From Vicugna vicugna (taxonomy: Eukaryota), in assembly GCA_013265495.1 (NCBI GenBank), contig MU057733.1, positions 62,001 through 126,000 on the forward strand: a stretch of DNA of 64,000 nt. Direction: 5' to 3'. Shown piece after piece: positions 6,281 through 40,440 of this stretch. The position numbers and the translations under genes are program-made. The notes beneath the pieces were generated by a model. It did not search any database. It was given only the letters and a program-made list of their open reading frames with translations, and had not been told where the DNA came from. Positions within the stretch are counted from its first letter, which is position 1. Each line of letters starts with the position of its first letter.

Positions 6281-9200
6281 CTGTTTAAAAGAGAGATAAA
6301 AAAAGGTTTTTTTCCAATTCAAAAGCTTTTAGCTTTTACAGTATTTAAGTGAGCAACTATCTGTTCAAATCAGGGCTGAAGCCACCTTCACTTTTTCAAC
6401 TTTTTACTTGAACCACAAAAATATGAGGGTGATTAGATTAATATGCATGGATTAATAAGCATAAAACAAGCATTCAAAGATTAATTTAAATTACTGATCT
6501 AATACAAAGACCCCTTCAAAGAATACCACTATTGCATTTAGTGGATACTCCTTCTACACATTTTTCTATTAACTATTCCTTTGAGTATCTGGTTGTTTGC
6601 TTCACATTGTTATAAATTATTACATACAACTGTATATTGATTTTTCCAACTACCAAAATATTTTGACATATTACAAACTTCATAAATACCCTGATGCTGT
6701 TATTCTTCGCATAATTCACTTACTTCTCTAAAGACTTAACCAAAATATTGAGAGAAAAAACTGGTTTTCAAAATGCTTGCATATACACTACCTAATGTGA
6801 TCCTTAACCTATTAATTTATCATTCCCCTTTAACAGATACTCTTCATCTGATTCTCTGGAAGTTAAAAGATCTTTTATAACTATAAAAAAGATATTCATA
6901 ATTTTAATAAGTCTTTTGTATTTTAAAACCAAAATTTCACTTATCCAGTCTAGAACTAAAATCCAATTCAAACAAAAGGATGGAGGGAGGTGTTGTAAGC
7001 TACATTTCTTTCAAGGGTCTCAAAAGCAAGGTAACTACAACCAGTAAGTGAATATAGTTTTATTTTTCCGAAGTTCTCCTTAAAGAACTGAATCAGTTTT
7101 ATGCCAGTATCAAATACTAAATGAATACTCACAGAGTATTTTCAGAATATACACACAGAAAGCATTGATGTTGACGTTAAGCCTCCTCCCAAATAGTTTA
7201 TAAAAGAACTTGTGTAGACAGAAGTAAACAGAGGACTAGGAAATATCACTAGCAAGCCGACAAGAGCAGAAGTACCAGGCAATGCTCCTAACACTTTATA
7301 GGTAATCTCATGGACAAATTACCGAATAAAATCTAAAACATCCGAAGATTCCGTTAGCTGTCTAAGCTTAAATTTAAATTTAACCATTAAAAGGCTTAAA
7401 ATTGAATGTAAACTATTTGATTCTGTTTTCACTTTACGAGTCCCACACTAGTTACAGTTTCCAGAAAAACTCTGCTACATTTTTAGTAACAATTCATATG
7501 AAAATCTAGCTGATCACAGAAAACGAAGTCAAAATCCCAGCTCATTTTTCTGTCAAAACAAAGGAACTAGCCTCAGAAGTCATTTTTAAAATAGGTGTCC
7601 CATAAGGAAGATAATTTATTATTTCAAATTTGTTCAAATCTGCCCTCAAGAGGCTGTAACTTCATCTACTCGCTAGCTGGGTTAAAAAATTAGTGGCGAA
7701 ATTATCATTAAGGACTTCACTCTATTACAGTGAGATGGCAGTAACTGGGAGTAATTTCAATTATACTTTCACCTCAAATCCTAAATACTACTTCCTTAGG
7801 ATAAAAGGTAAATTCTGGCGGCTTTCCAGTGACAATGAAGAAAGTAATATGCAAAGCTGTTGAAGTCAGTAACTTATCTCAGTATTCTGATTTCCAGGCA
7901 CAAACTTTTTTCAGTTGAAAGCCGATCACACACCATTTCCATATTTAATAGCTAAAATCCCTGTTACAGCTGGGTCTGAGTCCCTTCAAGTACGCAGTTT
8001 CATCAGAAGCACAGAAAGCAACATACAAATAGTTCATCTTGTGAAATGCTTATTTTCACTGAGTGGAGTCACTCAGTGGCTGGAGAGGGTTGGGGGGACA
8101 GTTAGACGATGGATTTCTACCAAAGCAGAAGTAACCACTAATACCTAGTATCTTTCTGTTCTGCCCAAGACGTTCCCCAATTCCCAATTCCTTCTACCCT
8201 GGAAAAACTACCAACGACAGGCAGTTAGGAAATACCTAGGATTTTCCCCCCTCCCACTTATCTGTTGCATCTAATCACAATAACGAACACGGGGAGGAGG
8301 AGGATGGGGAGAGCAATTTCTGTGCAGAAGCTTAAGTCAGTTTGTCATATAGCAGAGTCAAGGCAATTAATCTGTATAACTGTTGCCAGTTTGCTGGAGT
8401 TCGTTCTGAATCTACTTGTATCTTAGACAACGCATCTGAATAAAACGCGTTAATACGCTTACTCTTGGGAATGACTAGCTTTGTGGTTTTCAACTTTTTA
8501 CTGCCATCAAACAAAATTCATATAAAAAGTAACAGGAAGCAGTGGCTCAGAATCTGGATCTTAAAAACAGGTCGACGGTCCCAACTACAGTGCAAATAAC
8601 TTAATTCACCTGGAATGGGAGAGGATTTCACAGAAGATAAACCTCAAAACTCTGGGTCTGGTGGGCCACTGTGCCACAAGCCAACAGGACGCAACAACGC
8701 ATTACACCAGGGGTTTCAGGAAGAGTCTTAACAATCCCGGATTAAAAGGCGCCACTAGGGCCATTACGAGGTCAGCAGGGAACGTGCACGCTACGGCCCA
8801 GCCGGGACCCCTTCGCTGCATGCAGCCTGGCCCGGCGGCTTCCGCCGGCTCAGACCCTGGCCGCTTCTTGCCGGACCCACCCCGGAGTAGGGACAAGACT
8901 GGACTTGTCCCGGTTGTCCAGAGCCGGCGCGAGGCACGCCAACGGGGCGGGGCGGGCGGCTCACCTGGCGAGGCCGCGCTGGGGCCCGGGTCACGGGTTC
9001 GCGCGGCGCCTTCAGTCGGGCGCCAGCGCTGAGGCCATTTTGTCCGATCTCCGGTCCCGGCCCCAGAGCGCACGGTTGCCGCACAGGCCCAGTCCCGCCG
9101 GCTCCACGCCGGAGAGCCGGGCCCAGACCGCGAGCAGCCGCCTCGCCCGCCCGCCCGCGCCGGCCGGGGTCTCGGGGCGCGCCCGCCGCAGTGACGCGCA

Positions 9201-9528
9201 GCCCGCGCCCCGCCCGGGCCACGTCCCCGCTCCCGGGGCCCCGTAGGCAAACAAAGGGGCCTCGGGGCGCCGGCCGGGCCTGCCGGGCGCCGGGGCGAGG
9301 CTGCGGTCACAAAGGCGCTTCTGTGTCGCCGCGCAGGCCGGCGCCCCGCCCGCTGACGGGGCTCCGCAGGGGAGGGAGCCGTGCCGCGGGCCTCCGCGCC
9401 CACCGGGACTGCCGGGACCCGAGCCGGGACGCGGGCGGGCGAGCGCCAGGCTCCGAACAAAGGCGGCGGCGAGGAGCGCGGGTACTCACAGGAATATGTC
9501 TACTCATTGAAGATTGTGGCCTAATCAT
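6185..9528 (-). CDS. Spliced peptide uORF join(9528..9490,6280..6185): MIRPQSSMSRHIPQFCGVLGHTFMEFLKGSGDYCQAQHDLYADK* (44 aa)
   Basis: 39+96 nt, in frame across intron 1; in-frame ATGs at 9528, 9507, 6250; TGA at 6187-6185; C-terminal part resembles the known PRL-family magnesium-sensitive uORF. Confidence 0.85.
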
Positions 9529-9705
9529 ACAGCCGGTCCCGAGGCGGCGGCGGCGGCAGGGCAGGGGTGGCGGTGGTCGTCGCGGGGCGGCGGCTTCGCG
9601 GGCGGCGGCAGAGACACTGGACTCGATCCTGCAGTGAGCGGCTCCGAGGAGAGCGCGCAGCCTCGCCGGCCCGCAGTCCAGGGAGCCAATACGCGCGCCG
9701 AAGCG
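9490..9705 (-). other. PTP4A1: PTP4A1 exon 1 (5' leader); TSS approximate
   Basis: Donor CCT|GTGAGT at 9490/9489; TATAAA about 30 nt upstream of the inferred start; inside CpG island. Confidence 0.85.
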
Positions 9706-9710
9706 CCCTT

Positions 9711-9830
9711 GCGTCACAAGCCCTGCCATTTATAGTGGGCGTGACGTCGGCGCCCCGGGAACCAATCACAGCCTGGACCCAGGCCAAGCGCCGACGAGCG
9801 GGGGCGGAGGCCCGCCCCACGGGCGTCACA
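9711..9830 (-). promoter_or_regulatory. Core/proximal promoter: TATA, CRE-like, CCAAT and GC boxes
   Basis: Minus TATAAA 9734-9729; TGACGTCG 9742-9749; CCAATCA 9762-9768; GGGGCGG/CCGCCCC around 9801-9818; CGTCA half-sites near 9712 and 9824. Confidence 0.8.
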
Positions 9831-12800
9831 GCGCGGCGGCGGCCGCCGGTGTGAACCGGTTGATGAATGGCGACGCACCGCAGCCGAGCGCTATCGCGGC
9901 GGGGGGAGGGAAGAGGCCGAGGAGGGACTAGGTTGGACGCTTCCTGGGGTCGGGAGCGGGAAGGGATGCAGATCTACCCAATTAAAACCACCAGCCACTG
10001 CGCTCTTGTCACCTGAGGAGGCCTGAAGTTGGCCTCAACTTAAAATGCAGTCCCCTTGGGAACGCTCAGTCCCGGCCCTCGCTTCCTTCTGCCCTAAGTC
10101 AAACCACAGTCATCTTTGCCAGCGGTTTACCTTGGCACCTGCGCCCTGCGGTCCCCGTCACCAAATGTTTCTGTGGTCCTACCGCTGTCGGGTGACAACC
10201 CCTGGGGTGCCACGGCCCTTGGCCGGGACAGAGCGAGCACCGGTCGCGGGGCTCGTTCCAGCGGGGAGGACTTACTGCAGCAAACATCCTATAGAGGATG
10301 GGAGAGTATCTCGTGATGCAGATAAAGCCCTCTGCTCCCCAGTCTATTTTGGTCACGCCTTCGTACTACGTACGCGGGCAACAGCATTGGCTCAATCGTG
10401 GCATTTCGAAATCACATGCATCCTTTGTACTGCTGCTCACTTGATGCGTTGTCACTGATAATGAAAGGTTAGGGAGCATTTTAAAAATTAGGAATCTTCT
10501 GTTTTTGTCAAGGATTGATGTAATTTTTTGCGTCAGAGCTAAAGCTTTCCTTTTTGTTCATTTTCAGAACTGCCCCACTATGTTCGTAATTTAGGCCCTT
10601 AAGTAAAAGCCTTATCACAATTGTTCTGTGTTACACAAGGGCAACTCTGTCATTTATAATCTGAAAACTCTTTCTTCTCCGCTTTCTGGAAGGAGTAAAC
10701 AGGAGTTTTACCTGCTTTGAAGAACTCGATTTTCTGCTAACACTGAGGCCCTTTGTTTGCTGTTTTCACTAAGCAGTGGATTGGAGAGGGCTTTAGGGAT
10801 CAAATTGTTTTCTTGGTCAGCAGCGTCTTAGGATTTGTCAGAACTTATACTTAAGAGACTGTGCTTGCATACTTACTCAACTTTCTTATAAACGTATACT
10901 CTAAACAGAGTAAGTGCTTTCAAAAGGAATTGGGTCAGGCAGGCTTTTGCAGGAACAAAAGTCACATCACCTTCGTTTTAAATAAATTGCTTGTCAAGGA
11001 AACTTTTGAATCCCACCTAAATCAAGGGAAACTAAAGAACTTGAGAAATACATAATGTACCTTCACAAACTATGAAGGAGTAAAGATTTGAAGTTTTTAA
11101 GTCCTAAAAATATAGGAGGATTAAAAAAATAATCTTGGGGTGAGAGAGGCCTTCTTAACTAGATCAGAGAACTCAAGTCACAAAGAAAAAGACAGATTTC
11201 ATTATATAAAAATTAAAATCCTTGATATGGCAAAAGACTTTTGACAAAGTTAAAATACTTAATGGCCCATTGGGAGAGAATATTGGCGATGTAACGCGGG
11301 CAGAATTAACACCATAATATATAAAAGGCTTGACCCACATACACAATACTGTAGTTAGAAAACACATACAATCAGCAACTCTCACCCAAAGATGGTCAGC
11401 ACAGTGAGCTGGGGGGAAAGTGAAAGTATTTTTTCACCCAGTGGCTTTTCAAAAAATGAATTTGGTGGGAGAAGATATAAATTCAGCTAATAGTTAGCAG
11501 AGCTAATTCAGTATGAGCCAGTTTTCTTGTAGAACTTGTGATACGAGTTGTGAGCCTTGTGAGCTGGATCCTGTAATTAGCAATGCTGACATGAAGTATC
11601 CAGTCAGCTGTTGCTCATCAAGCTGGAAAAGCTGGGCTCAAACTCACAAGTGGCCTAACAGCTTCGGGCCGGGGGCGGGGGCGGGGGTCTGTTATTAGCT
11701 TCTCAGATGAGGAACTAGCTTGTTTCTACTTTGAAAGAACATAGTTCAAGGATAAAAAACTAGATAAAGCTTTTGGTATTGAAGAAAAAGGACACACTTT
11801 AAACAAGGTTTAAGTGTGGTCTCGCTGACCAGCTCACTGAATTCTCTCGGAGTAGTTATGGGCCTGGCACTCTGACAGCTGCCATGTTTATATGTGTCCC
11901 GTGCTATTGTGGTTCACTGCTATGCTGAGCGTGTCTGCTCTCCTGAGCCCAATAGTTTTAAGATGCTGATTCTCAGAGAACAGTAGTCCATCCCATCATT
12001 GTTTAGGAGAATCCTGTTGTCGGAGGACTCACTTAATCTCTATAGATTTGCACTTGGAGCATCAGAACCCATACTTACGGAAGTAGAGGTTCTCCAGACT
12101 GAGCTAGCAGGCTTGCAAATAGTGGTCCAGACATCCAGAGGTAAGAGAAAACCTCTGAAAAGCAATGTTCCAGAAGAAGCCCTAAGATTGAAGACTTCTT
12201 ATCCAGCTAAACAAAATGCCCTGGTAGGAGTTACTTTTCTCAGCAGAACATGTGTCCTTGAGCTCATGGTAGGCAGGACTTTCCATCAGCATATTCAAAA
12301 TGCCAAAGCCAACAGTTGGGAGATAAAGAAGACTATAAAAGAATCACGAGGAAAATCCTTATGGAAGATGAAACACTGCAGAAGACTGTTTCTGAAAAGA
12401 GTCTGTCTGGATCAGCAAACCCTGAAGATGAAGATGCAGAGAAATCTCTACAGGATGGCAGATCTCCTAGTAAACTTTGAATGATTCCATTTATACCAGA
12501 CATAAAAAGAATGGAGGATTTCAGTCCTTTCTCTCTCCTCAGATTTATTAAGGTTATAAATGGTAGGTTGAGGGAGTCTGATAAAAATTTTTTAATATAG
12601 TAAGAGTATTGCCACTGCAATGATGGAAAGATCAAAAGTGACAATACCAACCCAGAAAAAAAATACTAGATTGCAAGGTATAATGATGTGCCAAGTATAC
12701 TTAGTAGAGGCAAGTACCCCAGTAGGCGTCTGGATACCAGTGCAGAGGGCAATCTAAGTATATCCCCATACTTAAAAGGTGTCCTAAAAATTCAGGGATA

Positions 12801-24124: not shown

Positions 24125-24149
24125 CGTGTTCCCTATTTTTTTTTTTTTT

Positions 24150-24311
24150 AGGGGAAGCACAAAACACAGTCCCCCACTACCACAAATACACAGTTGAGTC
24201 TTCCGCGTTTGGGGAAATCACAGGGGTCAGAACACCTGGAGTGCAATGGATGAGCGTCTCCCTGGGAAAACCATCTCCATGATCACGGTATCTCCCCTGC
24301 CAGGGAAGTAT
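24150..24311 (-). pseudogene. RNU1: Full-length processed U1 snRNA pseudogene
   Basis: Minus strand reads ATACTTCCCTGGCAGGGGAGATACC...TCCATTGCACTCC...ATTTGTGGTAGTGGGGGACTG...CCCCT + poly(A); TSD TG(T/G)TCCCTATTTT at 24127 and 24312. Confidence 0.95.
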
Positions 24312-30480: not shown

Positions 30481-32649
30481 GAAATTAGGATGTTATTAAT
30501 GCCAAGATATATTTATTTTATTGTTTTCTTTTAATCTATCAAGTATTTTAAAGCAGAAAATGAATGCCTATAGAGTTTGATGCCCCTGTCAGGTCAGTAG
30601 TTCTTCAAAGATGGGGTCTGGTGATATATTTCTGTGTTTACCCCTCCTTCCTGATGCCATGGGTTATAGACTAGCATCAGGAATGCAATACATTAACAAA
30701 TTACTAACTAACCAAAAAATAGATTTCATTTGATCATCATAACAAGAAAATCTCCATTGTGCACTATCTTATTTTTTTCCAGACACTATTTTTGGATAGC
30801 TTGTTCCCACATAGAATGCAACATTATGGGACCTGAACACTGATTTAACATACTCGTCTGATTTTGTAAAATTTATACCAATGGAATATTTTACCTCTGG
30901 TCAGTTAGGACTGATTTTTGTTTCATTGCATAACTTCTTCAACACACTTCCCCTTCAGTTGGGTGATGAGCCTATATACAATTTTGAGATCCAATAAGGG
31001 GCAGTGTATAGAGAACATTCTTGTTTGGGTTTAATGGCATATTTACCTGGTTTGCAATTACTCTCACGTACAGTTAGCTGCCCTGGTGTAAAAATGGCTC
31101 TCAGAAATAGTCCCAACATCCATTGTGCTGTGCCAACCCATGCGGAGGATGTATGAAGCCATGAGCAGAGCCTGGTGCTTGCAGTGTGTGAGTAGTGGAG
31201 GAGATTCAGCATTTGAGAGGTATGGATCCAGAAGCTAGACTGTGTAAAATTCTTCTAAATGTTTTGGCCATATTGGGGGAAAAAAAAAACCCTAATAGAG
31301 TTCTACCTAAATCTGATAACATTCCTGAAAATTTGTAGGCCACCACTGATAAGAAATTGGGATGCTAAAGGAGTTTTTGAAATTATCAATAATGAAAACA
31401 ATGTCAAGTTATACATGCTAGAGGAAATAATTATATTTCTTTTTTTTAATATCATCTTTATTTATGAGTACATTAGAAACTGACACAGATCTCTTTAACA
31501 GGAGACTTAGGTTCTCATGGGCATCTACCCTCCACTCACTGTTAGAAAATGCCACTTCAGAATGGCAAAAAAGGCTAAGTAATAACTTAGAGTTATTATG
31601 ACAAGTTTCCAACTTATAGGAAACCTGGAAGGGTCTCTGGGCCTCCCAGGTCAAGACTGTACTGTCCTTTTAACAGACCTGCCCACACTCCTGTGTCATC
31701 TGGAATTCCTTAAAAATTTCATTGTGCCCCCAGGCAACAGAATATTCAATCACTCCACTGGTTTTTAAGGTGCAATTCTAGGGTTAAACACTGCGCCCAA
31801 ACATTTTCAAGCTGTCCAGACTTATCTTCCAAAAATAGTGTATTACTCACTTTACCAACTCTCCCTGCCAAATAAAGGACCCAAAGCATTAGTGTTAACT
31901 GCAAAATTAGTGAGGCTCGTCTTCTCTCCCCAAATCAAGTTATCCCCAGTCCCCAGAGAACGCTGTAAAACAAGGCAGGTATGGGCTTAATCTCTACCAT
32001 AGCAAAACTGATTAAAGCAAATTTTCCCTTGACTTCAGATCAACCCAGATCCAGACAGGTTGCTCTAGAGAGCTGATTCCTGCATAGTCTATCTCCCGGG
32101 TTATTGTCCACAGGACTCTGAGAAGCTGCAGGAACATGCAGGCGCAGACTCAAGGCCCGGCTTCATCTCCAACGTTGTGGAAAAGGACTATTCATCACGG
32201 GGCACAGCCCTATGCTTCCCTACGCCACCTGGACAGAGCTCGGGGAGAGTGACCTCCCGGGGTATCCACGTTGGTCACTATAGTTGAGAACTAACTTCAC
32301 CCAGTTGATAGCTGCTTCGGGAGATATCTATAAGGGAGTGGATTCAAAACACCTGGAGTGTCAACAAAAATCCCAGCCCAAGACCGATAAGCAGACCCAT
32401 ATTAGTCATCTGAATTTTCAGCCAGGTCTCCAAAGAAACATCTAGAAACCCCAACAGGCGATGAGCTTGCTGCTAAAGAAATAGGGAATGCGCAGTTGTT
32501 ACAGCAATGAAAGCTCCTATCGTTAATCCGATCATCTGGAATTGGATAGCAACCTCAAAAGATGAAACAATAGCAGAATTAAAGCATCCGTTTCGAAACC
32601 ACATAAACTCTTTCAAACAAAACCAGGAACAAAGTGCCCTGCAATGCAA

Positions 32650-32995
32650 CTCCACTGAGGACGCCCACGCGCCCCCTCAGGACGCAGCAAGCAGTCCGGA
32701 GGGCGGGCGCCGCGCATTCAGCGGGTGGGCGCTGAGGGTGCCGGCCCTGCCCGCCTGGCAGTTTCGGCCCCAGCGCACCTTGGTGACCAGGCCCCGAGGC
32801 CCACACCCGACCCAGCCGCGTTTTGCTAGTAAATGTAGTTACCACGGTCGCGGAAGATGCAGAGTCATTCTGAATAGTAGCTTCCCACGGAACAGGCTGG
32901 TTGGCGCCCCCGGGTAGCAGGCCTAGAGTTACCGCCACGCAGGCGGTTAGGAAGACTTCCCCGGCAGCCGGGGCAGCGGTCTTCCCCGGAAAGCT
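32650..32995. promoter_or_regulatory. Small orphan CpG island
   Basis: Local GC/CpG enrichment, GGGCGGG box, GCGGAAG ETS-like site; no coding exon recognised. Confidence 0.65.
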
Positions 32996-33171
32996 TTCTG
33001 TTTTTCTTTATTAACTATTATACAATTACCACATGAAGAGGCAATCAAAGAGAATGTGTCAAAAAAAAAAGTCGAAAAAGTTATGGAGGGATGAATCAGG
33101 AAGCAAATTAATTAAAATGTCATGTTTTCTTTTTTGAATTTTATGATGTCTATGGCATTTTGCAGCTTTTT

Positions 33172-33870
33172 TTTTTTGACCCCCTCCATCCCAGGACGCT
33201 GCCCTCCCCTGGCAACCCCAGCCTCCCCCTCAAGGACCTCCCCCCGCCCTCCGCCTGAGGACCCCTCCCCACTTACCCCCCAGGACCCCTTTCCTCCTAG
33301 GACACCACCCTCCCTTATAAAGACCTCCCCTTCCCCCAAGGACCCCGTCCCTCCGCCCCTCCCAGGACGCTGCCCTCCCCTCCATACCCTGGCCTCCCCT
33401 CAAAGACCCCCCTCCCTCTGCCCAAGGACCCTCCTTCCTTTCCCTCCCTCCCAGGACCCCCTCCCTCCAGGGCCGACACCCTCACCTGTAAAGACCCCTG
33501 ACCTTCCCCCGAGGACCCCCTTCCCTCCTAGGAACCCACCCTCCCCGCCTTCCTCTGCCAGATCCTCCTCTCCGCTCAAGCCCCCATCCCTTCTCTCAAG
33601 GGCCTGCTCTCAAGGGCCTGCTCACCGCCTTGGCCCTGCCTTTGTCCCTCCGCTGTACTCTGTCCCGGCCTCTCTCCTAGCTCCGCTCCCTGTATCTACC
33701 TCAGCTCTTTATTCTGCTCCCCCTCTACCTCAGTCCCACTTCTCCTCTCTGTGCACCCCTCCTTGCTCTGGCCGCACATCTCCTCTCCCAGCCCCTTACC
33801 TTCTTCCCTCTACCTCAGGGCTGTCCCCGCTTCTCCTTTACCTCAGTCCCACTCCTTGCGCCCCTCTCCT
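33172..33870 (-). mobile_element. Unclassified G-rich VNTR-like retroposed insertion
   Basis: Perfect 16-bp TSD CATTTTGCAGCTTTTT at 33156-33171 and 33871-33886; short A-tail; TTTT/AAAAA target site. Confidence 0.75.
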
Positions 33871-35574
33871 CATTTTGCAGCTTTTTAAAATTTATAATTT
33901 GTTTTTACATTCTAAATAAATAATCATTTTCTTAATAAGTTTGTATTTTAAAAAATTGTTTTACTTAAAGAGAACCCCCAGGTTGTGTAAGTTCCAGGCT
34001 TCACAAAGCCTGTGCTTAACCTCGGATCCCACCCACTCCCCAGTGTGTGGCAGTGATGTAGTGACCCCTGGTCTTTGCTCCAATCCAGTGTTAGTCTTAC
34101 AATATGGCCATCTTATGTATCAAATACTATAGAGAAGAAAAGTAGATATTAATTATGATTTTTTTTGAAACCAGAAAACCTGGTACCTGTTGAAATTATC
34201 TGAATTACCTGTAAAGTTGCTAACAAATATTTTTATAAAAACATGTTTTTCACTATAAGTCTCTGTGGAGGGTGCCATCAAAGGCATATGTGAATTCTAT
34301 TTTTCAGAGACCTTGACAGGAACAGAAAATATATGCAGTGTGGTCTGCTACCTGTACTGTCCCCCTCTATGTGGCTAGTGTGCTTGAATTTTGTGGGCCA
34401 GTAAGAATGTCAGTGGGGACTGGGTCACCCAGGACTGAGTAGGTGGGTGGTCACCTACTCATCTTTAAAAAGATGGGAAGGAGCTGGGGGCATAGAGAAG
34501 CTACACTTACCTCTCTGCTGCCTGCCTTCCTCCTCCCAGAGCTATGCTCCTGGCTGGGGTGAAGGGGCAGTGGGGCACCTCCAAGAGCCCAATGAGTTCC
34601 TTTCATGAACACACAGAGGCTTGTCTAAGTCCAGTAGAAATCTGGTTCGGTGGCCTGACCATGACACTTATCTTCAGGGTCATAGCAGATGGTCGGGCAC
34701 TGCTGGTGAGTCACCCCTCTCAGGTGGTTCCTGGCATTGAAGTGAGGCTCTGCAGAGCAAGAAGCGTGATCTGTCAGGTGATTTCATCAGGGCATCACCA
34801 CTGTCTGAGTGCTGACTTCCCCAGAGGCCATCTAATGTGTGTGAAATGAGCCCTTGTCAAATTCCAGGAATATCACTGTCTCATTATGTGACCTTCGACA
34901 AGGTCACTTAAATTCTCAGAGCCTTGTTTCCTTGGTTAAAACGGAAAGTGGTTCCACAGAGTTGGCATGAAAATTTGAACTGTTAATGTATGGAAAGTGT
35001 TATGCAGATCTAGACAAATGAAATTATTTTATAACACTGTGGATATAGTATAAGACATGTAGATACTATTTATAGCCTCTACATTTGCAAGAGAACTTGA
35101 GATATTTACAACAGTGGAGGAGAAAGGAACAACTGAAAAAAAGTAGATGACATTCTAGTGTCATTTATTCACTCAACAAACACACACTGGTCACTATCCT
35201 GTGCAAGGTCTGTGAGGCACTGTGGGGCTTGACTTCAAAGAATTTACAATCTAGGAGGGAACACTGGATATATATACCAGCGATTCAGAAGGTAACATTT
35301 GCTGGGTGTAAAATGTGTGCATAAAGTAACCGCTATGGCAGTTCAAACCAGAATAATCCTGAGGAAAGTTTACTAAAGAGGGAAGGCGGTAGAGGCCGGT
35401 CCCAGCATGTGTTGAGTTCCTAGTGTGTGCACTACTCCAGGTGTCTGTACTCTCAGTGGGACTCCAGGCAGAGGAAACTGTCCCCACAGAGGTAGGGAGA
35501 CAGAGTCCATATATAAGATGTGGCAGGGAACAGGCTTCTCAGAAGGAAGCAGGCCCCAATTAAGATGATTTTTT

Positions 35575-35727
35575 GTTTTCACTTTTTAAAAAATTTTATT
35601 TTATCTTTTTATTTTTGGGGGAGTAATTAGGTTTATTAATTTATTTTAACGGAGGTACTGGGGATGAAACCCAGGACCTTGTGGTTGCTGAGCACACACA
35701 ACCTACCGCTGAGCTACACCCTCCCCC
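35575..35727 (-). mobile_element. tRNA-derived SINE (camelid type)
   Basis: Minus GGGGAGGGTGTAGCTCAGCGGTAG...GTCCTGGGTTTCATCCCCAGTACCTCC...TAAACCTAATTAC. Confidence 0.85.
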
Positions 35728-36174
35728 TGCAACAAAGATAATTGATTTGAGTTTGAAGAGTTGTCCAGGTACAGCATGATGGACGGCTTCAAATGTAAGG
35801 TCAAGATTTGGTCTCTGCCTGGTGGATAATGCAGGTGATGCTTCCTATGGAAGCCCTTAAGAAGAATACAAGTCTTTTTTGAGCAAAATTTGTGTTCTCC
35901 TCACAAGGCTCACCAGTGAGCCAGTCTTACATGTTAGCTCTGAATGCAGGACAGATTGTGTAAGCAAGTTTCACGTGTGGTAACAATTCCAACTTTGTCC
36001 TGTGCTCATCTGGAAATTTCTTAAGGCAATGAAATGTGGCAGTTGAAGCTCTTGGTACCCGTTTTTTACTTACTGGTCCCAAAAGAGGAGTTTAAACAAT
36101 TGCGAGTGACCCCTTGGCTAGGGGATTAGTTGTCTTAATCCTCCAAGTCACTAGAACTCAAACTTTACTATTTT

Positions 36175-36830
36175 GTCAGGGACCTAGTCAGGACAAAAGA
36201 AACCACAATTATTTAAAGAGACAATTTTTATATAGGGAATTGGAGATAGAGGTATTGGAGAACTGAAAAGGAACAAAGCCAACACAGAAAGAGTAACTGC
36301 AGGAAGCAGTTATCACCACTGGGCGCNNNNNNNNNNNNNNNNNNNNNNNNNNNNNNNNNNNNNNNNNNNNNGGGGGTTGGGAGGGGTGGGGGCAGAGGGT
36401 AAAGGTCAGGTTGTTGGGAATTAGAAGCTTGGAGGAGGAATCCAGACCTCTGGATTGAGGAGGTTGCCCCAGGGGGGCTGGGACCCCAGGAACTCAGAGG
36501 AGAGCCTGGGGGAGTGGGGCCCCAGATTTCAGCAGGTGCTGTTGCTCTGACAGAGCTCCCTAGGGTTGCTTCTATGAGATGGGGACAAAGTGGAAACTGA
36601 AACCACGTGCTGCAGAAACAGCCGGAACTGCTGGGATGAAGAGCTGCAGCGGGGAGATGCCGACAGGAACAGCAAGCAAACCGGAAGGAGGGCAGCCTGT
36701 CTCCTTCCTCCTCATTTCCGTTCCCTCCCTAGTGCCCCTTATTGGTAAGAACATAACAGGGAGCAGGATGGCAAAGAAAAAACGTGGTCACGGAGAGCCA
36801 GCCTCAGCCTCATGATCCTGAGAGGTTATT
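36175..36830. mobile_element. MaLR/ERVL-type LTR remnant spanning a gap
   Basis: TGTCAGGGACCTAGTCAGGACAAAAGAAACCAC start, MLT-like. Confidence 0.5.
36327..36371. other. Assembly gap (45 N)
   Basis: Run of n. Confidence 1.
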
Positions 36831-37722: not shown

Positions 37723-38321
37723 TTCATATATAATTCCTCCTATGATTTAATACTGGGAAAAGAAAATCTATCTTTTCACATGAATTTGTATACTTTCTCT
37801 TATCAGGAAAGAAAGAAAATTAACACCGTGAGTTTCTCTTTTGCTTTGGCTGCCTGGAAGCTCAGAGTCATTTAGTGCAATCTCTCTCAAGTTTTCTGAT
37901 TAAATCACTTTTAACGTTTTGTAAAGTTATGAGTTATCTCACATCCTTTTTTTCTTGAAACAGGCTGGACGTAAATAAATGCATATAATAATTTAAATTA
38001 TATATTATATTTTTCAAAATACTTTGATACAGTAACTTAAAGTTTCATACTGATTAACTCAAGATATAATGAAGGCCAAAGTTGATGTATTTTTATAGAA
38101 AATGCATCCACTGTAGCAGTTTTGAGATGATACTGGGCTTGAATGTGGAATCATTTTTCATACTAATGTACATTCTTATTATGTTTCCCTGGCTTCTGTG
38201 CACTTTATGAGTGAAATTAAAAGCCGATGGATAAAATTCTACCTTTTCTATAACTGCTTTATTTCTACTGTTTTTATAGTTCTATCTTGGAAACTTGAGA
38301 ATGACAACAAAGCATAATTAT

Positions 38322-38445
38322 GGGGGTGGGTGGGTATAGCTCAGTGGTACTTAGGATGCACAAGGTTCTGGGTTCAACCCCCAGTACCTCCATTAATAAC
38401 TACCTACCTACCTACATTCCTATCTACCTAATTACTGCCCTCCCA
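38322..38445 (+). mobile_element. tRNA-derived SINE (camelid type)
   Basis: GGGTATAGCTCAGTGGTA...GGGTTCAACCCCCAGTACCTCCA; A/B-box-like motifs. Confidence 0.85.
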
Positions 38446-38919
38446 ATTATTATGCCAGGAGTAGTTGATGAACTGAATATTCAGACACAGAATGCTCTAG
38501 GCAGGTAAGATGTCTTGGCCCTGTTTTGAGAAGCTCATTGCAGGCTGATACGGGATTTCATTTATAAACATCACATCGTATACAATACCTAAGAAAGCAC
38601 ATATAAACACTGAAATATAGTAAACACTGTGGGCCCTCAATTTATGGTTGTTTTCTGATAATTTTTTATCTTATATGGGAGATCATATCTCTACCTCTTT
38701 GTCCGAATGTGGTAATTTAAGCAGATGCACTGAATCTTCCACTGTAGCAAATAGTATCATGGTATCACCTCTACTGTCCAAGGAATAGAAATTCTGAGTA
38801 AATATACAAGCAAATGTTTGTTTTCTGGCCATCACTCTACTTCACACTATATTATTATTGTGTTCTTTGGACTAATACAAATAATATAATTAGGGGGAAC
38901 ACTCAACTTATAGAGCCCT

Positions 38920-40235
38920 CAAGACAGCATGGTATTGGTACCAAAACAGAAATATGGACCAATGGAACAGAATAGAGAGCCCAGAAATGAACCCACAAAC
39001 CTTTGGTCAACTCATCTTCAACAAAGGAGGCAAGAATATACAATGGAATAAAGACAGTCTCTTCAGCAAATGGTGTTGGGAAAACTGGACAGCAGCATGT
39101 AAAACAATGAAGCTAGAACACTCCCTTACACCATATACAAANNNNNNNNNNNNNNNNNNNNNNNNNNNNNNNNNNNNNNNNNNNNNNNNNNNNNNNNNNN
39201 NNNNNNNNNNNNNNNNNNNNNNNNNNNNNNNNNNNNNNNNNNNNNNNNNNNNNNNNNNNNNNNNNNNNNNNNNNNNNNNNNNNNNNNNNNNNNNNNNNNN
39301 NNNNNNNNNNNNNNNNNNNNNNNNNNNNNNNNNNNNNNNNNNNNNNNNNNNNNNNNNNNNNNNNNNNNNNNNNNNNNNNNNNNNNNNNNNNNNNNNNNNN
39401 NNNNNNNNNNNNNNNNNNNNNNNNNNNNNNNNNNNNNNNNNNNNNNNNNNNNNNNNNNNNNNNNNNNNNNNNNNNNNNNNNNNNNNNNNNNNNNNNNNNN
39501 NNNNNNNNNNNNNNNNNNNNNNNNNNNNNNNNNNNNNNNNNNNNNNNNNNNNNNNNNNNNNNNNNNNNNNNNNNNNNNNNNNNNNNNNNNNNNNNNNNNN
39601 NNNNNNNNNNNNNNNNNNNNNNNNNNNNNNNNNNNNNNNNNNNNNNNNNNNNNNNNNNNNNNNNNNNNNNNNNNNNNNNNNNNNNNNNNNNNNNNNNNNN
39701 NNNNNNNNNNNNNNNNNNNNNNNNNNNNNNNNNNNNNNNNNNNNNNNNNNNNNNNNNNNNNNNNNNNNNNNNNNNNNNNNNNNNNNNNNNNNNNNNNNNN
39801 NNNNNNNNNNNNNNNNNNNNNNNNNNNNNNNNNNNNNNNNNNNNNNNNNNNNNNNNNNNNNNNNNNNNNNNNNNNNNNNNNNNNNNNNNNNNNNNNNNNN
39901 NNNNNNNNNNNNNNNNNNNNNNNNNNNNNNNNNNNNNNNNNNNNNNNNNNNNNNNNNNNNNNNNNNNNNNNNNNNNNNNNNNNNNNNNNNNNNNNNNNNN
40001 NNNNNNNNAGGGTGGGAAGGGATAGACTGGGATTTCAAAATTGTAGAACAGATAAACAAGATTACACTGTATAGCACAGGGAAATATACACAAAATGTTA
40101 TGATAAATCACAGAGAAAAAAATGTGACAATGAGTGTGTATATGTCCATGAATGACTGAAAAATTGTGCTGAACACTGGAATTTGACACAACACTGTAAA
40201 ATGATTATGAATCAATAAAAAATGTAAAAAAAAAA
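38920..40235 (+). mobile_element. Young 5'-truncated L1 spanning the assembly gap
   Basis: Open ORF2 peptide [31 protein letters not shown]; perfect 15-bp TSD AACTTATAGAGCCCT at 38905-38919 and 40236-40250. Confidence 0.93.
39142..40008. other. Assembly gap (867 N)
   Basis: Run of n. Confidence 1.
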
Positions 40236-40313: not shown

Positions 40314-40440
40314 GGGGAGGGTATAGCTCAGCTGGTAGAGCATGTGCTTAGCATGCAAAAGGTCCTGGGTTCAATTTCCAGAAATACCCACTCCCCGCCA
40401 AAAAAAAAAGAACAACAACAACAAAAGCTTAAAATAAAAT
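40314..40440 (+). mobile_element. tRNA-derived SINE with TSD
   Basis: GGGGAGGGTATAGCTCAGCTGGTAGAG...GGGTTCAA; TSD AAAGCTTATCA at 40299-40309 and 40441-40451. Confidence 0.88.

Follow-up and report, generated by a model that had tools for sequence, protein, structure and literature searches.

A probable L1-mediated retrocopy of a G-rich, minisatellite-bearing RNA beside a SNORA73 host-gene retrocopy in the vicuña genome

Background

Retrocopies produced by the L1 machinery carry, in the part of PMC4859970 that treats them, a common set of hallmarks, namely a target-site duplication (TSD) of 4–20 bp, an L1 endonuclease (EN) site, a 3′ A-run and a 5′ join through microhomology. Template-switch chimeras (U6 chimeras) are described in the same part as a known L1 product, and the domains given there for SVA elements include a CT-hexamer at the 5′ end as well as a 3′ domain that closes with a poly(A) signal. 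Composite families of the SVA type that are built around a VNTR are, in the cited sections of PMC7353768 and PMC4432496, specific to hominoid primates. A further class, the snoRNA retroposons (snoRTs), is characterized in the cited passages of PMC1687206 by shared insertion spots and by nested retroposons that each have their own TSD.

Here, we investigated a 699-nt G-rich insert in a 64-kb stretch of vicuña DNA (the window, meaning that stretch at its full length), the sense strand of the insert being the minus strand. Like L1 retrocopies (processed or semi-processed pseudogenes), it has a TSD, an EN site, an A-run, a 5′ microhomology and, for 243 of its 693 nt, a candidate parent elsewhere, but its template would have been an unspliced G-rich repeat, antisense to an intron and without a poly(A) signal, rather than a spliced, polyadenylated mRNA, and two thirds of it have no surviving parent sequence. 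With orphan L1 3′ transductions it shares unique non-L1 sequence bearing L1 hallmarks and a parent locus that has an upstream L1 in the same orientation; it departs from them in that this L1 is 5′-truncated at ORF2 and non-autonomous as it stands, and in that no sibling insertions were found. SVA, LAVA, PVA and FVA elements likewise have a G/C-rich VNTR core, mobilization by L1 and G-quadruplex (G4) potential, whereas the insert is single copy, has neither a CT-hexamer nor a 3′ poly(A)-signal domain, and is not found in a hominoid. A second retrocopy in the window, hereafter the neighbour, resembles the snoRTs of PMC1687206, as far as the cited passages describe them, in its U17/SNORA73 copy, its exons from the host gene, its A-rich tail and the short duplication that flanks it, and in lying beside another retroposon in one old repeat; the three snoRT types described there begin at the mature snoRNA 5′ end, whereas the neighbour begins at the transcription start of the host gene, with exon 1 and the whole of intron 1 retained.

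Results

The features of the locus are collected in Table 1. The two copies of the 16-mer CATTTTGCAGCTTTTT are identical at 16/16 positions and enclose a T6 run followed by a C-rich block of 693 nt (33178–33870). Only two exact direct repeats of at least 16 nt occur at a spacing of 100–2000 nt in the 64-kb window, this pair and a 22-mer internal to the insert, and none occurred in 30 of 30 block shuffles of the window. The reconstructed empty target reads TTTT/AAAAAG on the minus strand, and the reconstructed nick site on the plus strand, CTTTTT/AAAA, fits the L1 endonuclease site TTTT/AA. Since the TSD begins AAAAA, the tail can be read as anything from A6 to A11, and its run length differs in contigs from other runs, by 1 nt in X3/X8, by 2 nt in X17 and by 4 nt in X18; the sole AATAAA on the sense strand of the insert (33713–33708) lies ~535 nt ahead of the tail. 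The original prediction had described an exact 16-bp duplication around the C-rich block, a minus-strand TTTT/AAAAAG target with a short A-tail and no nearby AATAAA, and a junction signature of L1 type, all of which agree with these results, the last being backed by the TSD, the TTTT/AA site and the minus-strand A-tail. The flank to the right of the insert is unique in the genome (one match, itself).

Table 1. Features of the insert and its surroundings (positions within the window; a dot marks features without a strand)
Feature	Position	Strand	Remark
Left copy of 16-bp TSD	33156..33171	.	3′ side of the insert in minus-strand sense; exact match to 33871-33886
A-tail of retrocopy (T6 on plus strand)	33172..33177	-	A6 to A11
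3′ part of insert: G-rich minisatellite, ~19-37-nt GGGGTCCT-type units	33178..33627	-	450 nt, VNTR
5′ part of insert: CTGAGGTA-type repeats	33628..33870	-	243 nt; only part with a detectable parent
Right copy of 16-bp TSD	33871..33886	.	5′ side in insert sense; then AAAA
Old AT-rich interspersed repeat hosting the insert	32994..33155, resumes 33887-34010, and ~31149-31435 left of the neighbour	.	One copy
Semi-processed retrocopy of U17/SNORA73 host gene (neighbour)	31436..32993	-	Separate event, orientation as G-rich insert

The 5′ end of the insert reads AGGAGAGGGGCGC and its 3′ end GGAGGGGGTC, followed by A6. Its minisatellite contains a 171-nt unit present 2.0 times at 33189–33528 (76% matches) and a 14-nt unit present 2.5 times at 33589–33623 (both TRF), and the exact 22-mer stands at 33189 and 33360, where the two copies of a 171-bp higher-order repeat had been predicted. 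The sense strand is 52% G (361/699) with 56 runs of three or more G, and seven non-overlapping canonical G4 motifs, every one within 33178..33627, confirm the strong G-quadruplex potential noted earlier. Rfam at the gathering threshold reported nothing inside 33156–33886. A stop-free, proline-rich frame of 267 codons on the plus strand spans the whole insert (33116–33919); its coding potential was rejected, neither it nor three further frames of the insert having a Pfam match and the chance of such a frame in an A-poor strand being roughly 1 in 4 (an estimate from base composition). A bacterial promoter/terminator scan, which is not applicable to this genome, found nothing.

A search of the 2.03-Gb assembly with the whole insert returned itself and one other locus, on contig C6364, which matches the 5′ 243 nt only. 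For the 450-nt VNTR part, the assembly holds no copy other than itself (one match, E ≤ 10), the reciprocal search with the C6364 parent stretch returned the window only, and the 22-mer with up to two mismatches had no further copies in the assembly, in searches that skip simple repeats and in an assembly fragmented into 12,405 contigs. Within the scope of these searches, the element is a single copy and not an SVA-like mobile family. With a single copy and one partial, parent-like locus in 2.03 Gb, the SVA-like, multi-copy family that had been proposed is not supported; the second option offered with it, a G-rich transcript retrocopied once, is supported. A single other locus without a TSD had been named as what would be the source gene; the C6364 relative, which sits at its intronic position with neither TSD nor tail, is such a candidate, but it matches only 243 of the 693 nt, and the remaining 450-nt VNTR is without a parent in the assembly.

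The parent stretch (C6364:1799887–1800122, positions 1500–1736 of L002) is 83% (BLAST) or 85.2% (237 aligned columns) identical to the 5′ part of the insert, and the first position of the match coincides with the 5′ edge of the insert, where there is 1 nt of microhomology (G). Directly past position 1736, L002 has GGGGGTCTTCGGGGAGG-type units; the VNTR compared with L002 1737–2400 gave 33 against 23.7 ± 3.0 (maximum 34) for shuffles, which is not above the shuffles. With an identity of 83–85% and differences that run through all the units (GAGGTA in the insert as opposed to GAGGCA/GAGGCG in L002), an allele or paralog that has been lost or left unassembled may be the true source. The parent stretch adjoins a CpG island and lies within what is putatively intron 1 of a SCAN-KRAB-C2H2 zinc-finger gene, to which the copied strand is antisense. 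Downstream of the C6364 island, minus-strand exons match SCAN (1e-35, with an acceptor upstream and an ATG), KRAB (5.7e-22) and C2H2 (3.9e-21), and the assignment of exon 1 and intron 1 is presumptive. One RNA-seq run (X17) contains a 1614-nt contig with an L002-like version, the loose end of which matches L002 upstream sequence. In this contig, the strand of which is not readable and which may be DNA, a 45-nt VNTR-like stretch lies 69 nt past the 5′ module and is 91% like 33357–33401 (41/45) in the same order and on the same strand, which argues for a colinear source. A weak zf-LYAR match (E 0.006) at L006 1898–2185 was read from its translation as the 3′ terminus of an L1 in inverted orientation.

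Relative to the parent stretch, the insert differs in 18 of 201 non-CpG columns (9.0%) and in 17 of 36 CpG columns, and its CpG o/e is 0.355 as against 0.74. The insertion is old rather than recent, with CpGs lost since, and the earlier description of a young element is not upheld by this divergence, by the CpG depletion or by the presence of the insert in runs whose labels give the organisms A, B and D. The perfect 16-bp TSD is no proof of youth because, at ~4.5% change per site, 32 sites would remain unchanged with an estimated chance of ~0.24.

Four paralogous copies of the host repeat (L013, L015, L016, L017) all align straight across the site once the G-rich insert is removed in silico, and all four cross it without the insert and with one copy of the 16-mer region. 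When both inserts are removed, three of the four are colinear across both sites, the best alignment of L017 covering the G-rich site only. The insert was further examined in the runs X3, X8, X17 and X18 (4 of the 24 runs X1–X24, with organisms C, E and F left out). One X3 contig (3311 nt) and one X8 contig (3289 nt) each span all of 32990–34100 with four other letters and one or two small gaps compared with the window, and the left junction is also crossed by X18 and X17 contigs, which leave 33902–34100 and parts of the VNTR without cover. The single joint listed in the four runs derives from a paralogous contig and no joint skips the insert; missing cover or joints are no evidence on transcript ends or on the absence of an empty allele. 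The insert is not a misassembly, a possibility raised with the original prediction, as contigs of independent runs carry both junctions.

The neighbour is 82–88% identical to C11847:2662161–2666210 (L029). The 894-nt GT..AG intron 2 of its parent, which holds SNORA73B, is precisely missing at 31928/31929, and the retained intron 1 includes a decayed SNORA73 copy at 32071–32274 that scores 46–52 bits under its parents. An AATAAA stands at 31462–31457 and an A8 run at 31447–31440, and the flanking repeat is TTTCTTTTTTT/TTTCTGTTTTT. The CpG-rich block at ~32650–32990 (CpG o/e 0.81) ends near 32993, 163 nt from the TSD, and is the 5′ part of this retrocopy; of the orphan CpG island that had been placed about 160 bp away, the distance stands and the orphan status does not. 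The CpG block together with SNORA73 would also suit the true U17HG/SNHG3-RCC1 locus, which an RCC1-repeat search ruled out: at least 95 matches were obtained (150 of 200 candidates scored), with none on the window's contig and four on C11847, so that the window holds a copy and not the locus. Elsewhere in the window, 13 frames of a strong CpG island at 8500–10500 matched 0 Pfam families.

Discussion

The insert is probably a single-copy retrocopy, made by L1 through target-primed reverse transcription, of an unspliced, G-rich, minisatellite-bearing non-coding RNA. In such an event, the L1 endonuclease would have nicked the plus strand at CTTTTT/AAAA within the old AT-rich repeat, a short A-tail at the RNA's 3′ terminus would have given the T-run its priming site, and ~690 nt would have been copied before the 5′ end was joined via 1 nt of microhomology, staggered second-strand cleavage then leaving the 16-bp duplication. 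L1 is the presumed agent, the identity and 3′-end formation of the RNA are likewise deduced, and an RNA from the G-rich strand at C6364 is the putative source. A first look at the genome gave 10,402 L1 ORF1 candidates, and most of the 150 that were scored have a 322-aa open frame. The retrocopy is most likely without function.

Mobilization of an antisense, intronic, unspliced sequence that lacks its own poly(A) signal would be explained by an orphan L1 3′ transduction, in which a read-through transcript of an upstream L1 is retrotransposed in cis and 5′-truncated until only non-L1 sequence is inserted. A plus-strand L1 with EN and RT matches (L006 4455–8815; RVT_1 8.1e-21) does lie in the orientation of the insert's sense strand and ends in an A-run at L002 ~421–429, from where it is 1,070 nt downstream to the parent stretch, and the reinterpreted "novel non-coding gene" insertion of Solyom et al. 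2012, as cited in the relevant part of PMC4859970, offers a precedent. We nevertheless consider a transduction unlikely. This L1 begins at the ORF2 start, its ORF2 is broken into many frames, and ORF1 and the 5′ UTR are absent, only an inverted 35-codon ORF1 piece adjoining it (L006 4206–4311), so that it is not retrotransposition-competent as it stands. Further, the 1,070 nt between it and the parent stretch (L002 430–1499) match only themselves in the genome, and thus no sibling transductions were found, and no poly(A) signal was seen downstream in L002.

The two modules are of different repeat type and a parent was found for the 5′ one only, as would be expected had the L1 reverse transcriptase switched templates between a VNTR-bearing RNA (3′) and an unrelated C6364 RNA (5′); the X17 contig and the GGGGGTCTTCGGGGAGG-type units past L002 1736 both point instead to a colinear source, and such a chimera seems very improbable. 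The VNTR core, the junctions of L1 type and the build from two modules would also suit a member or founder of a lineage-specific SVA-like composite family with its remaining copies absent from the assembly, and GC-rich tandem repeats are frequently lost from fragmented assemblies. However, no more copies were retrieved with the whole element, with its VNTR part, with the parent stretch or with the 22-mer (up to two mismatches), the CT-hexamer 5′ end and the 3′ domain with a poly(A) signal are lacking, and the sole relative stands in its intron without TSD or tail, which makes a family extremely improbable. Equally remote is an origin at the DNA level, by segmental copying or by the capture of filler DNA in a break, or else in an assembly artefact: the very short tail and the lack of a poly(A) signal would be compatible with either, but L1 suits the length of the TSD, the TTTT/AA nick site and a T-run that stands at the end where one would expect it, both junctions are bridged by contigs that come from two other studies, and no terminal inverted repeats were seen on reading the insert ends.

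The element, as an L1-mediated retrocopy, is an ordinary kind of genomic fossil, an old L1-inserted copy of a G-rich non-coding RNA, and it matters little beyond annotation, where the proper label is a single retrocopy and not a new family of repeats, and where the CpG-rich block is not to be taken for an orphan promoter. An unspliced, G-rich, antisense intronic RNA without a poly(A) signal does raise the question of whether read-through from an L1, internal priming or a short nuclear oligoadenylation supplied the A-tail. We regard it as highly doubtful that the two retrocopies jointly form a new transcription unit, in which the G-rich, G4-dense copy would give a start site or open-chromatin element driving the host-gene copy. 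The latter arrived without a promoter and kept a CpG-island-like 5′ end, and the G-rich copy lies 163–190 nt upstream in the same orientation; RNA-seq library contigs cover the 5′ 400 nt of the insert and also run from inside it over the spacer into the host-gene copy. Against such a unit stand the possible presence of DNA in that library and the SNORA73 copy's score of 46–52 bits under its parents. That a single old repeat holds two unrelated retrocopies, with 190 nt between them, agrees with the shared insertion spots of snoRNA retroposons described in the cited passages of PMC1687206.

Structure and authenticity of the G-rich insertion

Re-reading of the window confirmed the sequence as first described: CATTTTGCAGCTTTTT is present in two exact copies, between which lie six extra T and a C-rich block (see table). 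In minus-strand orientation, the insert starts directly after the right-hand 16-mer and ends with ...GGAGGGGGTC and A6 before the left-hand 16-mer, which itself begins with AAAAA, so that the tail is readable as 6 to 11 A. The rebuilt plus-strand target, CTTTTT/AAAA, matches the L1 endonuclease motif TTTT/AA given in an excerpt of PMC4859970, and the proposed L1-type junction signature (target-site duplication (TSD), nick site, and A-tail on the minus strand) holds. Exact direct repeats of at least 16 nt spaced 100–2000 nt apart numbered two in the 64-kb window (the 16-mer pair and an internal 22-mer) and zero in 30/30 block shuffles. The sense strand of the insert contains 52% G and 56 runs of three or more G, with all seven canonical G4 motifs in the VNTR part; its sole AATAAA lies ~535 nt ahead of the tail, and its 3′ end falls within a repeat unit.

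Features of the window (window coordinates)
Feature	Position	Strand	Details
CpG island	8501-10000		strong; GC up to 0.80, CpG o/e ~1.0, long open frames
U1 snRNA match, full-length	24149-24311	-	118.7 bits (gathering 69.5)
Semi-processed retrocopy of U17/SNORA73 host gene	31436-32993	-	spliced intron 2, AATAAA + A8
SNORA73, full-length	32071-32274	-	Rfam, 162 bits
Left-hand 16-mer	33156-33171
Extra T6	33172-33177
C-rich block	33178-33870
VNTR part	33178-33627
171-nt unit x2.0	33189-33528		76% matches, TRF
14-nt unit x2.5	33589-33623		TRF
5′ module	33628-33870
Right-hand 16-mer	33871-33886
Assembly gaps (runs of N)	36327-36371, 39142-40008
tRNA-like match	40319-40390	+	39.4 bits

Judged by alignment, the insert flanks are parts of an old AT-rich interspersed repeat (left flank 72% identical to contig C10341, right flank 70–74% to three further contigs). 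When the insert was deleted by script with one 16-mer retained, all four paralogous repeat copies (L013, L015, L016, and L017) aligned unbroken over the site, with one 16-mer region and nothing between. Contigs from four of the 24 public runs listed were compared with the window. Single contigs of 3311 nt in run X3 (organism A) and 3289 nt in run X8 (organism B) span the whole of 32990-34100, with four other letters and one or two small gaps; contigs from X18 (organism D; 95–99% alike) cover 32994-33296, over the left junction, and 33599-33866, and those from the RNA-seq library X17 cover 32994-33243 and 33479-33886. These spanning and junction-covering contigs rule out misassembly as the origin of the structure, which is common to runs labelled as three organisms. 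No insert-skipping contig was listed in the four runs, and contigs lose rare variants.

Copy number and parent locus

The copy search covered an assembly of 2.03 Gb in 12,405 contigs, with simple repeats skipped and counts thus being lower bounds. The whole insert found itself and one other place, C6364:1799887-1800122, through query positions 451-693 only (83%); the VNTR part alone (423 nt) had no match beyond itself in the assembly, even at E<=10. A reciprocal search with positions 1080-1900 of L002, a stretch of C6364, returned itself and the window only, and the 22-mer, with up to two mismatches allowed, occurred at the two insert places and one unrelated place. Within these lower-bound counts, the insert is a single copy with one partial related locus, not the SVA-like family first suggested: it fails the defining test of many copies and has neither the CT-hexamer nor a 3′ domain that carries a poly(A) signal. 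SVA-like VNTR composite families are given as hominoid-specific in excerpts of PMC7353768 and PMC4432496.

The insert's 5′ 243 nt align with L002 1500-1736 at 85.2% identity (35 mismatches in 237 columns), beginning exactly at the 5′ edge of the insert with one G in common; 17 of the mismatches fall within the 36 columns with CpG in either sequence. L002 is G-rich over 1100-1860, where TRF gives short tandem arrays only, and leads into a strong CpG island (1860-2400; GC 0.78, o/e 0.95). Downstream on the C6364 minus strand lie exons for SCAN (1e-35; with an upstream acceptor and ATG) and KRAB (5.7e-22), as well as C2H2 fingers (3.9e-21), with no further CpG island between. We therefore infer a zinc-finger gene whose first exon is located in the island and whose first intron contains the G-rich repeat; relative to this gene, the strand copied would then be antisense.

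The VNTR part had no significant match in the downstream L002 sequence (score 33 vs 23.7 +/- 3.0 for shuffles, max 34). An L002-like X17 contig (1614 nt), whose loose end matches upstream L002 sequence, carries a 45-nt stretch resembling 33357-33401 (41/45 letters) 69 nt past the 5′ module, in the order and strand of the insert, which favours a colinear source, either a repeat that was longer at the time or an unassembled allele or paralog. Divergence between the two 171-nt copies (24%) exceeds that between the insert and its parent, so the array was probably already present in the RNA before copying.

Age of the insertion

Non-CpG divergence between insert and parent is 9.0% (18/201 columns), and the insert has a CpG o/e of 0.355, vs 0.74 for the parent stretch; by its composition, the insert has decayed in the manner of methylated DNA. 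Together with the loss of CpGs and the occurrence of the insert in organisms A, B, and D, this divergence speaks against the young age originally proposed. At ~4.5% change per site since insertion, we estimate p ~0.24 for 32 unchanged sites, so a perfect TSD is compatible with an old insertion.

Origin of the copied RNA

The insert works like other L1-mediated retrocopies of cellular non-coding RNA, and a one-off event of this kind from a G-rich transcript, the second option of the original prediction, is supported by the L1-type junctions, single copy, and partial parent; we consider this reading likely. L1 is abundant in the genome with intact genes (10,402 ORF1 candidates at first look; 150 were scored, most with a 322-aa open frame). 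The A-tail of the source RNA could have been a short non-canonical one, or might reflect internal priming, as described in an excerpt of PMC4859970. A third possibility is retroelement read-through, which would make the insert an orphan L1 3′ transduction, the main rival reading. A plus-strand L1 with EN and RT hits (L006 4455-8815, also on C6364) does end 1,070 nt ahead of the parent stretch, with matching orientation, and a transduction would account for mobilisation of such an RNA. However, this L1 starts at the ORF2 start, has beside it only an inverted 35-codon ORF1 fragment, and is separated from the parent stretch by 1,070 nt that are single-copy in the genome, making a transduction rather unlikely. 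Either way, retrocopy or transduction, the insert is a known kind of event. The layout of the C6364 L1, with the short inverted ORF1 fragment at L006 4206-4311, resembles a 5′ inversion with internal deletion.

The neighbouring SNORA73 host-gene retrocopy

The nearby CpG island, previously regarded as orphan, is the 5′ end of a semi-processed U17/SNORA73 host-gene retrocopy. Window positions 31900-33000 match C11847:2663661-2664710 at 82%; that contig has a second SNORA73 and, 18–24 kb further on, four RCC1-repeat matches on the same strand, whereas none of the 95 RCC1-repeat matches listed is on the window's contig. U17HG is located just upstream of RCC1. The copy starts at the host-gene start (GCTTTCCGGGG, ~32993) and runs through exon 1 and the entire intron 1 with SNORA73 into exon 2. 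The parent's 894-nt intron 2 (GAG|GTAAGT to ...TTATTCAG|GAGAG), which contains SNORA73B, is absent exactly at 31928/31929. This precise loss, the retained intron 1, the terminal AATAAA (31462-31457) and A8 run (31447-31440), and the flanks TTTCTTTTTTT / TTTCTGTTTTT identify a semi-processed retrocopy. According to an excerpt of PMC1687206, the non-coding U17HG carries U17A (SNORA73A) in its first intron and U17B (SNORA73B) in its second; the window copy begins further upstream than all three snoRT types described there.

Non-CpG divergence from the parent (10.0–11.5%) is close to that of the G-rich copy, and CpG o/e is still 0.81 at the 5′ end. The window SNORA73 looks decayed from its score of 162 bits vs 214 and 208 for the parents. 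The host-gene segment occurs a third time at C8150:8824801-8828177 (match 1501-2385), with 78.6% identity to window 31431-32285 and a SNORA73 scoring 173 bits. The 894-nt intron is missing there too, and this copy is probably a further retrocopy.

With both inserts deleted, three of four paralogous repeat copies were colinear over both sites. As read from the alignments, the two copies arose separately within a single old repeat, where they lie 190 nt from each other in the same orientation; shared insertion spots of retroposons are described in the excerpt of PMC1687206. That they now form one transcription unit is very improbable, the sole hint being contig cover from one RNA-seq library possibly containing DNA.

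Other features of the window

The U1 snRNA match lies in AT-rich, L1-rich surroundings. Pfam gave no match on 13 frames of the 8501-10000 island. A GC of 0.205 in bin 38001-40000 is due to the assembly gap there. The tRNA-like match shares sequence with window 35602-35729 and with L006 8094-8304, an insert within the C6364 L1, and probably represents the head of a tRNA-derived SINE.
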